This document shows positions 546 through 746 of a DNA stretch of 64,000 bases, in pieces. Location of the stretch: the NCBI RefSeq assembly GCF_003334785.1, contig NZ_QOWV01000013.1; one strand, written 5' to 3'. Source of the stretch: Escherichia coli. GTDB lineage: Bacteria > Pseudomonadota > Gammaproteobacteria > Enterobacterales > Enterobacteriaceae. Position numbers and translations under genes: made by a program. The notes under the pieces were generated by a model. The model worked only from the letters and a program-made list of their open reading frames with translations. It ran no database searches and was not told the origin of the DNA. Each line of letters begins with the position of its first letter. Positions within the stretch are counted from its first letter, which is position 1.

Positions 546-746
546 TTGATCTTAATTAAGCTTTTTTGATTATGTCCGAATTCGGACAAATGCTTTATAA
601 AAAAGGGATTTAGCTTCATATCCTTCAAGTAATGAGGGAGAAAACAAGGCTGATAACCTTATTTTCCCGCCCTCATTTCGAGGCAGCATTTTGTTCTCTG
701 TTTAAAATTTGTGATCACTGTGTGATTTTCACAAAAGCCACACTAT

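Follow-up and report, generated by a model that had tools for sequence, protein, structure and literature searches.

The perfect 16-bp palindrome TGTCCGAATTCGGACA in the spacer between metF and katG of Escherichia coli is probably an incidental sequence, for which we infer no dedicated function, in neutrally drifting spacer DNA that is found only in Escherichia. It occupies positions 573–588 of the window (the whole stretch of 64,000 nucleotides analysed here), corresponding to MG1655 4,133,665–4,133,680; the first-pass annotation had recognised it as a perfect 16-bp palindrome, but had placed it one base too far to the right, at 574–589. The palindrome lies within a roughly 190-bp, Escherichia-only stretch, which changes about as fast as expected for neutral DNA and is not part of the conserved katG regulatory module (OxyR site, −35/−10 and 5′ UTR). 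Its perfect symmetry is a property of the commonest E. coli haplotype; other common haplotypes differ by one to five substitutions, and their hairpin is weaker or gone. According to the explanation we favour, the palindrome would serve neither as the metF terminator nor as a conserved operator.

The palindrome and its surroundings

The window is a piece of the E. coli chromosome in reverse orientation with respect to K-12, such that window position w converts to MG1655 position 4,134,253 − w. In window numbering, metL and metB come after metF. The metF–katG spacer covers positions 419–746 (328 bp), and the features relevant to it are the following:

1–418, minus strand: 5′ part of katG, reading leftward and running off the window; the A of the ATG is at 418
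472–477, minus strand: katG −10 element, TATAAC
497–541, minus strand: OxyR binding region (−32 to −76), in the conserved katG promoter block; coordinates from PMC9774250
553–745: Escherichia-specific spacer segment, single copy, in the place of the metF terminator of other genera
561–567: T-run CTTTTTT, inverted partner of 599–605, 5′ of the hairpin on the plus strand
573–588: palindrome TGTCCGAATTCGGACA, at about −108 to −123 relative to the start of katG transcription
578–622 (±2): putative position of the YgaV footprint (−113 to −157), calculated from a transcription start at 465; footprint from PMC9774250
599–605: A-run AAAAAAG, reading CTTTTTT on the minus strand and there also 5′ of the hairpin
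631–677, minus strand: long imperfect hairpin in the metF-sense transcript (−25.9 kcal/mol, z = −4.8)
708–735, minus strand: AT-rich dyad TTTGTGA-N14-TCACAAA, just after the metF stop and followed by UUUU on the metF strand
747–1637, minus strand: metF coding sequence

As the first-pass annotation had stated, the palindrome is situated between metF (stop at 747, minus strand) and the katG promoter, and it is flanked by an A-run and a T-run. The complete arrangement is CTTTTTT, 5 nt, hairpin, 10 nt, AAAAAAG, in which the two runs form an inverted pair. The katG transcription start would be at window position 465 (MG1655 4,133,788), by which TATAAC falls at −12 to −7 and the −76 boundary of the OxyR region coincides with the start of cross-genus conservation, at about 541–542. 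The OxyR region itself shows conservation between genera and hardly any variation within E. coli. Like the OxyR site of katG, the palindrome is located upstream of the promoter, but it lies 32 bp further upstream and in non-conserved DNA. We rejected it as an OxyR site, given its position outside the OxyR-protected conserved region. A sigma-70 promoter scan of positions 300–900 returned no sites.

A perfect 16-bp palindrome occurs at chance frequency and is not unusual in a window of this size: two were observed against 1.3 expected in first-order Markov simulations, and at least one was present in 75% of the simulated windows. (An expectation of 0.01 pertains to the particular 16-mer TGTCCGAATTCGGACA, not to palindromes generally.) The only other one in the window, ACTGGCGATCGCCAGT, is found at 63306–63321. 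In addition, a perfect 10-bp palindrome, CTTAATTAAG, spans positions 551–560 at the upstream edge of the conserved OxyR block; its position 552 is a T in the window and in K-12, and a G in most of the other sampled E. coli alleles. The hairpin that the 16-bp palindrome can form, with a 6-bp stem containing four GC pairs and a 4-nt loop, is modestly stable (−7.8 kcal/mol as RNA, z = −3.6; −4.8 kcal/mol as DNA). Small open reading frames of 38–39 aa on the minus strand that span the palindrome lie in non-conserved DNA and are without support. A literature search for the exact 16-mer gave no relevant match, its sole hit being an unrelated one in cancer metabolism.

The Escherichia-only segment and its variation

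We compared metF loci by scanning genome contigs for MetF and retaining the best 80 enterobacterial loci, among which Escherichia is represented by E. coli and E. albertii only. Where katG follows metF, the two Escherichia species have spacers of 328 bp (E. coli) and 340 bp (E. albertii), whereas those of Citrobacter and Salmonella arizonae measure about 164 bp and those of Enterobacter and Leclercia about 144 bp (overall range in Citrobacter, Salmonella and Enterobacter, 144–166 bp). In the alignment, the shorter spacers of Citrobacter, Salmonella and Enterobacter consist of a canonical metF terminator, i.e., a GC stem with a T-run (for example, GCCCTCC-ctg-GGAGGGCTTTTTT, about −13 kcal/mol), directly abutting the conserved katG control block. 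This block reads GATCTACATC...CTATCG (more fully, GATCTACATCTC...CTATCG.ATC.GTGG.TTA...) and continues into the −10 element and the 5′ UTR. Since the control module directly adjoins the metF terminator there, these other enterobacteria regulate katG without any counterpart of the palindrome. In Escherichia, that terminator is missing; in its stead stand about 190 bp of unalignable DNA, with the palindrome inside. The loss in Escherichia of a canonical metF terminator that its relatives have kept is a by-product of this comparison, and raises the question of how metF transcription ends ahead of the katG promoter in E. coli.

No homologue of the 553–745 segment was found in other genera among the 80 enterobacterial metF loci. 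With a sensitive BLASTN search of 5,426 complete E. coli genomes, it matched a median of one place per genome. The segment shares with REP and MITE repeats that it is hairpin-forming, intergenic and lineage-restricted, but differs from them in being single copy in each E. coli genome and in lacking an Rfam match: a scan of positions 1–2000 at a permissive E-value yielded sub-threshold noise only. We discarded a dispersed repeat or mobile-element remnant as its origin, in view of the single copy and of the lack of similarity in the 80 loci or elsewhere in the window. Conservation across Enterobacteriaceae, proposed at first pass as the check on the dyad, thus went against it: the dyad is absent outside Escherichia and imperfect in E. 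albertii, where the orthologous sequence, TATCCGAATACGGACA, retains six of the eight pairs.

Within E. coli, alleles were counted in the same number of genomes by an exact-word search with a 30-mer comprising the left flank and the palindrome. The perfect palindrome with the K-12 left flank is present in 4,029 of the 5,426 genomes (74%), K-12 included; this share is a minimum, given that in one sampled strain the perfect dyad adjoins a variant flank. A second allele, TGTCCGATTTAGGATA, occurs in 970 genomes (18%), including the type strain ATCC 11775, and a third, TGTCTGATTTCGGCAG, in 163 (3%), including Nissle 1917, while the remaining 264 genomes (5%) have other alleles. The dyad is broken in about a quarter of the genomes of its own species, and no compensatory changes accompany the breakage. 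In a sample of 14 alleles, deliberately spread across the identity ranking, six of the 16 palindrome positions vary and none of the changes is compensatory. Taking five variant E. coli alleles together with that of E. albertii, the number of pairs falls from eight to seven, six, five or three, every change lowering the pairing, and the hairpin energy of variants drops from −7.8 to −5.5, −1.8, −1.7 or 0 kcal/mol. In these relatives, the stem is preserved neither by conservation nor by compensation, as would befit a functional hairpin.

Of all segments compared in the 14-allele sample, the palindrome shows the highest diversity (π = 0.14). The non-palindromic flank 553–572 is almost as variable (π = 0.09), and the block 419–552 with the katG promoter, OxyR site and 5′ UTR has a π of 0.004 in the same spread sample. 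Positions 553–630 as a whole are among the most variable DNA here; the adjacent 134-bp promoter block is almost invariant. Compared with the window, the 193-bp segment shows 90–95% identity in 1,549 and 80–90% in 149 of the 5,426 genomes.

As a neutral benchmark we used the four-fold degenerate sites of metF and katG, with strain NRG857C as the B2 reference. At these sites, K-12 differs from NRG857C in 68 of 520 positions (13%) and from E. albertii in 154 of 492 (31%). The promoter block 419–552 is far below either figure, with one difference in 134 positions for K-12 versus B2 (p = 2e-6) and six (4%) for K-12 versus E. albertii. Positions 553–630 differ between K-12 and B2 at 14 of 78 sites (18%, p = 0.29), and the flanks of the palindrome (553–572 and 589–630) differ by about 30% between K-12 and E. 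albertii. For the palindrome itself, the K-12 and B2 sequences are distinct at five of 16 positions (p = 0.053, toward excess). By these segment divergences, the palindrome and the DNA around it therefore change about as fast as the neutral four-fold sites. One comparison is at odds with an incidental origin: K-12 and E. albertii differ at only two of the 16 palindrome positions, below the 31% at four-fold sites, though not significantly (p = 0.17).

Judged by divergence, constraint of some degree is confined, within the segment, to its metF-proximal part. Positions 631–746 differ between K-12 and B2 at four of 116 sites (p = 0.002). Its two portions are 631–677, with two differences in 47 sites between K-12 and B2 and 21 in 47 (45%) between K-12 and E. 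albertii, and 678–746, with two in 69 (p = 0.01) and 13 in 69 (19%, p = 0.035), respectively, in both comparisons significantly below the four-fold sites.

The clustering of changes in the palindrome raises the alternative that it is a mutational feature: a quasi-palindrome in which template-switch events make and destroy symmetry in multi-base steps, and which would still be functionless. Such events would explain both the excess and the clustering of substitutions; the palindrome is indeed the most polymorphic piece of the spacer, five of its 16 bp differ between K-12 and B2, compared with 13% of four-fold sites, and one of its alleles features a 3-base block change, ACA>CAG, at 586–588. The excess over the neutral rate is, however, not significant, the neighbouring 553–572 flank nearly matches the palindrome in variability despite having no symmetry, no donor template could be identified for the block change, and the alleles are unpolarised, E. 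coli and E. albertii being the only species available. We consider template switching quite unlikely to be the explanation.

Should the incidental nature of the palindrome be borne out, a false lead would be removed, and the functional katG control region would end at about window position 552 (−87), the spacer past that point being free to drift.

Transcript ends downstream of metF

That the palindrome is no typical intrinsic terminator, as the first-pass annotation had held, is correct, but there is a better reason than the symmetry it invoked. The symmetry of the flanks places the T-run ahead of the hairpin and the A-run behind it whichever strand is read, and with the runs in this order the palindrome cannot be an intrinsic terminator. 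By the same token, the proposal of a short bidirectional hairpin is not supported, the order being the reverse of the 5′ A-tract and 3′ T-tract of a bidirectional terminator. In common with intrinsic and bidirectional terminators, the palindrome is a short, GC-containing hairpin in a spacer 3′ of a gene, with T- and A-runs nearby, and its stem-loop has the stability and GC content expected of the former. It is unlike them in its runs, misordered on both strands, in having no 3′ end mapped to it, and in a stem without compensatory maintenance; moreover, the terminator of the other genera at this place is a different sequence.

No U-tract directly follows the stem on either strand. On the minus strand, the sense strand of metF and katG, the sequence continues with UAAUCAAAAAAG / TAATCAAAAAAG; on the plus strand, it continues with AATGCTTTAT, where TTTAT is all there is. 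A terminator scan flagged the palindrome on the plus strand only, with the weak TTTAT tail, and at a frequency such as that seen in shuffled sequences.

Transcription of metF is repressed in rich medium, and for this reason the absence of its 3′ end from Term-seq tables amounts to a weak negative. Term-seq mapping, the check proposed at first pass, gave no metF 3′ end at the dyad or elsewhere in the spacer (Adams et al. 2021, PMC7815308): the curated tables of 3′ ends and Rho regions contain nothing at MG1655 4,1335xx–4,1338xx for the three conditions covered (LB at two densities, and M63 glucose; PMC7815308). The TERMITe supplements likewise gave no hit.

The palindrome could nevertheless act as an RNA hairpin in transcripts that read through from metF, whether as the inner stem left from a decayed terminator or as a barrier to 3′ exonucleases after Rho-dependent termination; as a barrier, it would define the processed 3′ end of metF and so compensate for the canonical terminator lost in Escherichia. 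We deem this highly improbable. The replacement of the GC-stem and T-run terminator that follows metF in other genera, the folding energy of −7.8 kcal/mol (z = −3.6) and the flag raised by the terminator scan, albeit on the plus strand only, are all consistent with it. Against it stand the lack of a U-tract in the metF-strand sequence after the stem, UAAUCAAAAAAG, the lack of curated 3′ ends or Rho-termination regions in the spacer under the three growth conditions, and the variants that break the stem without compensation. Furthermore, two other structures are nearer to the metF stop, namely the hairpin at 631–677, which is far more stable (−25.9 kcal/mol), and the dyad at 708–735, which is more conserved.

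The latter had been noticed before, as tgtgatcactgtgtgattttcaca; the dyad exists, but not at about 700–725, its true place being 710–733, within the longer inverted repeat formed by the arms TTTGTGA (708–714) and TCACAAA (729–735). Together with the UUUU that follows, this AT-rich dyad may be a working, weak metF terminator. The 631–677 hairpin has the arms AATGAGGG...CCCTCATT and no U-tract after it. Its folding energy stays at −19 to −26 kcal/mol among divergent alleles of E. coli, and its structure is different in E. albertii. The Rfam family “mir-14” matched it with 21.6 bits, below the gathering score of 53.

Protein binding upstream of katG

Perfect dyads are typical of dimeric repressor sites, and a protein-binding site was the other function suggested at first pass. 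One weak support for this was found, a YgaV footprint that would extend over 11 of the 16 bp, but the dyad is not conserved. In the YgaV study (PMC9774250), the purified protein, a sulfide-responsive repressor of the ArsR/SqrR type, bound a fragment from upstream of katG in gel shifts and gave DNase I protection of −113 to −157 of katG in vitro, and katG was up-regulated in a ygaV mutant. About 20-fold more protein was needed at katG than at ygaVP, and the authors found no ATTC-N8-GAAT motif at katG. With the transcription start at 465, the promoter-proximal edge of the reported footprint would cover 11 of the 16 bp of the palindrome; as mapped, the centre of the footprint is about 20 bp from the palindrome, the five promoter-proximal bp of which stay uncovered.

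In window positions 560–630, we found no inverted repeat resembling ATTC-N8-GAAT. With the operators of YgaV, SqrR and BigR, which have this motif, the palindrome has in common the overlap with the footprint and a centre that contains both GAAT and ATTC. It differs from them in that its two tetramers come in the opposite order and run into one another (GAATTC), leaving out the N8 spacer, and in that the katG site has an affinity about 20-fold below that of ygaVP and a 45-bp footprint centred elsewhere. By the mapping above, the YgaV footprint at katG (PMC9774250) is a low-affinity one and falls entirely within unconstrained DNA. Its place in DNA that shows no conservation between genera and no constraint in E. 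coli affects the weight to be given to the reported regulatory link.

The palindrome also resembles operators of the DeoR family. Two of these were confirmed in K-12, the DeoR operator TGTTAGAATACTAACA upstream of deoC and the GlpR operator TGTTCGATAACGAACA upstream of glpD. The palindrome is a 16-bp dyad with the same TGT-N10-ACA frame, and its inner CGA/TCG is as in the GlpR site, but it is identical to each of them at 11 of 16 positions and does not overlap the promoter of a sugar-catabolic operon. Among random palindromes, about 0.4% agree with a given half-site in six or more of eight positions, many operators were compared, and chance alone would give 0.63 occurrences per window of the relaxed pattern TGTYCGWWWWCGRACA at two mismatches. 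The identity of 11 of 16 is not statistically distinguishable from chance, and the likeness to the DeoR and GlpR operators is a resemblance rather than a membership. The ChIP-exo tables of Gao 2021 contain no metF/katG peak for 34 candidate transcription factors, the DeoR-type YciT and YgbI included.

These data bear on the possibility that the region at about −110 to −155 holds a lineage-specific, low-affinity upstream operator that modulates OxyR-dependent transcription of katG, bound by YgaV or by another dimeric helix-turn-helix protein such as a DeoR-family member. The gel shift, the footprint at −113 to −157 and the de-repression of katG in the ygaV mutant (PMC9774250) speak for such an operator and against an incidental palindrome, and so does the overlap that the calculated position of the footprint at 578–622 would have with 11 of the 16 bp. 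The symmetry typical of sites for dimeric repressors and the TGT-N10-ACA architecture common to the DeoR and GlpR operators of K-12 point the same way. We regard it as unlikely all the same. YgaV is required at about 20 times the amount needed at ygaVP and the ATTC-N8-GAAT motif is lacking, and the footprint as mapped is off centre by about 20 bp and leaves the five promoter-proximal bp exposed. The region of the footprint evolves at the neutral rate and is absent outside Escherichia, and at least 21% of E. coli genomes have a destroyed dyad. Identity with the DeoR and GlpR operators extends to just 11 of 16 positions, with the 0.4% chance rate per half-site and the many operators compared to be reckoned with, and the 34 factors gave no ChIP-exo peak at metF/katG.

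The narrower proposition that, in the majority of E. coli lineages, the perfect palindrome itself nucleates binding of YgaV or of a DeoR-like dimer at a place upstream of the OxyR site is very unlikely. If it were true, the palindrome would constitute a recently evolved, Escherichia-specific input into catalase expression, and the binding would have been lost from lineages with broken alleles, for instance B2-type strains, among them Nissle 1917 and the type strain, resulting in strain-dependent regulation of katG.

Another regulatory site has been described in this neighbourhood. TTGGCGCGAATATTGCC, at 867–883 on the minus strand and inside the 3′ end of metF, is the intragenic sigma-54 ChIP-seq site IS48 (Bonocora et al. 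2015); it is in sense orientation toward katG. A gSELEX peak of RpoN has been reported for the metF/katG spacer (Shimada et al. 2021). We dismissed the sigma-54 site as an explanation of the palindrome: it is about 290 bp away, within metF, and unrelated.

The annotation of the poultry isolate E. coli LH85-a has katG as a pseudogene, interrupted by an internal stop. E. coli ETEC4090 carries an IS1 element that separates the palindrome from the OxyR block. The insertion, at a place equivalent to window positions ~560–568 and with a 9-bp target duplication, GCTTTTTTG, has moved the palindrome about 770 bp from the katG promoter.
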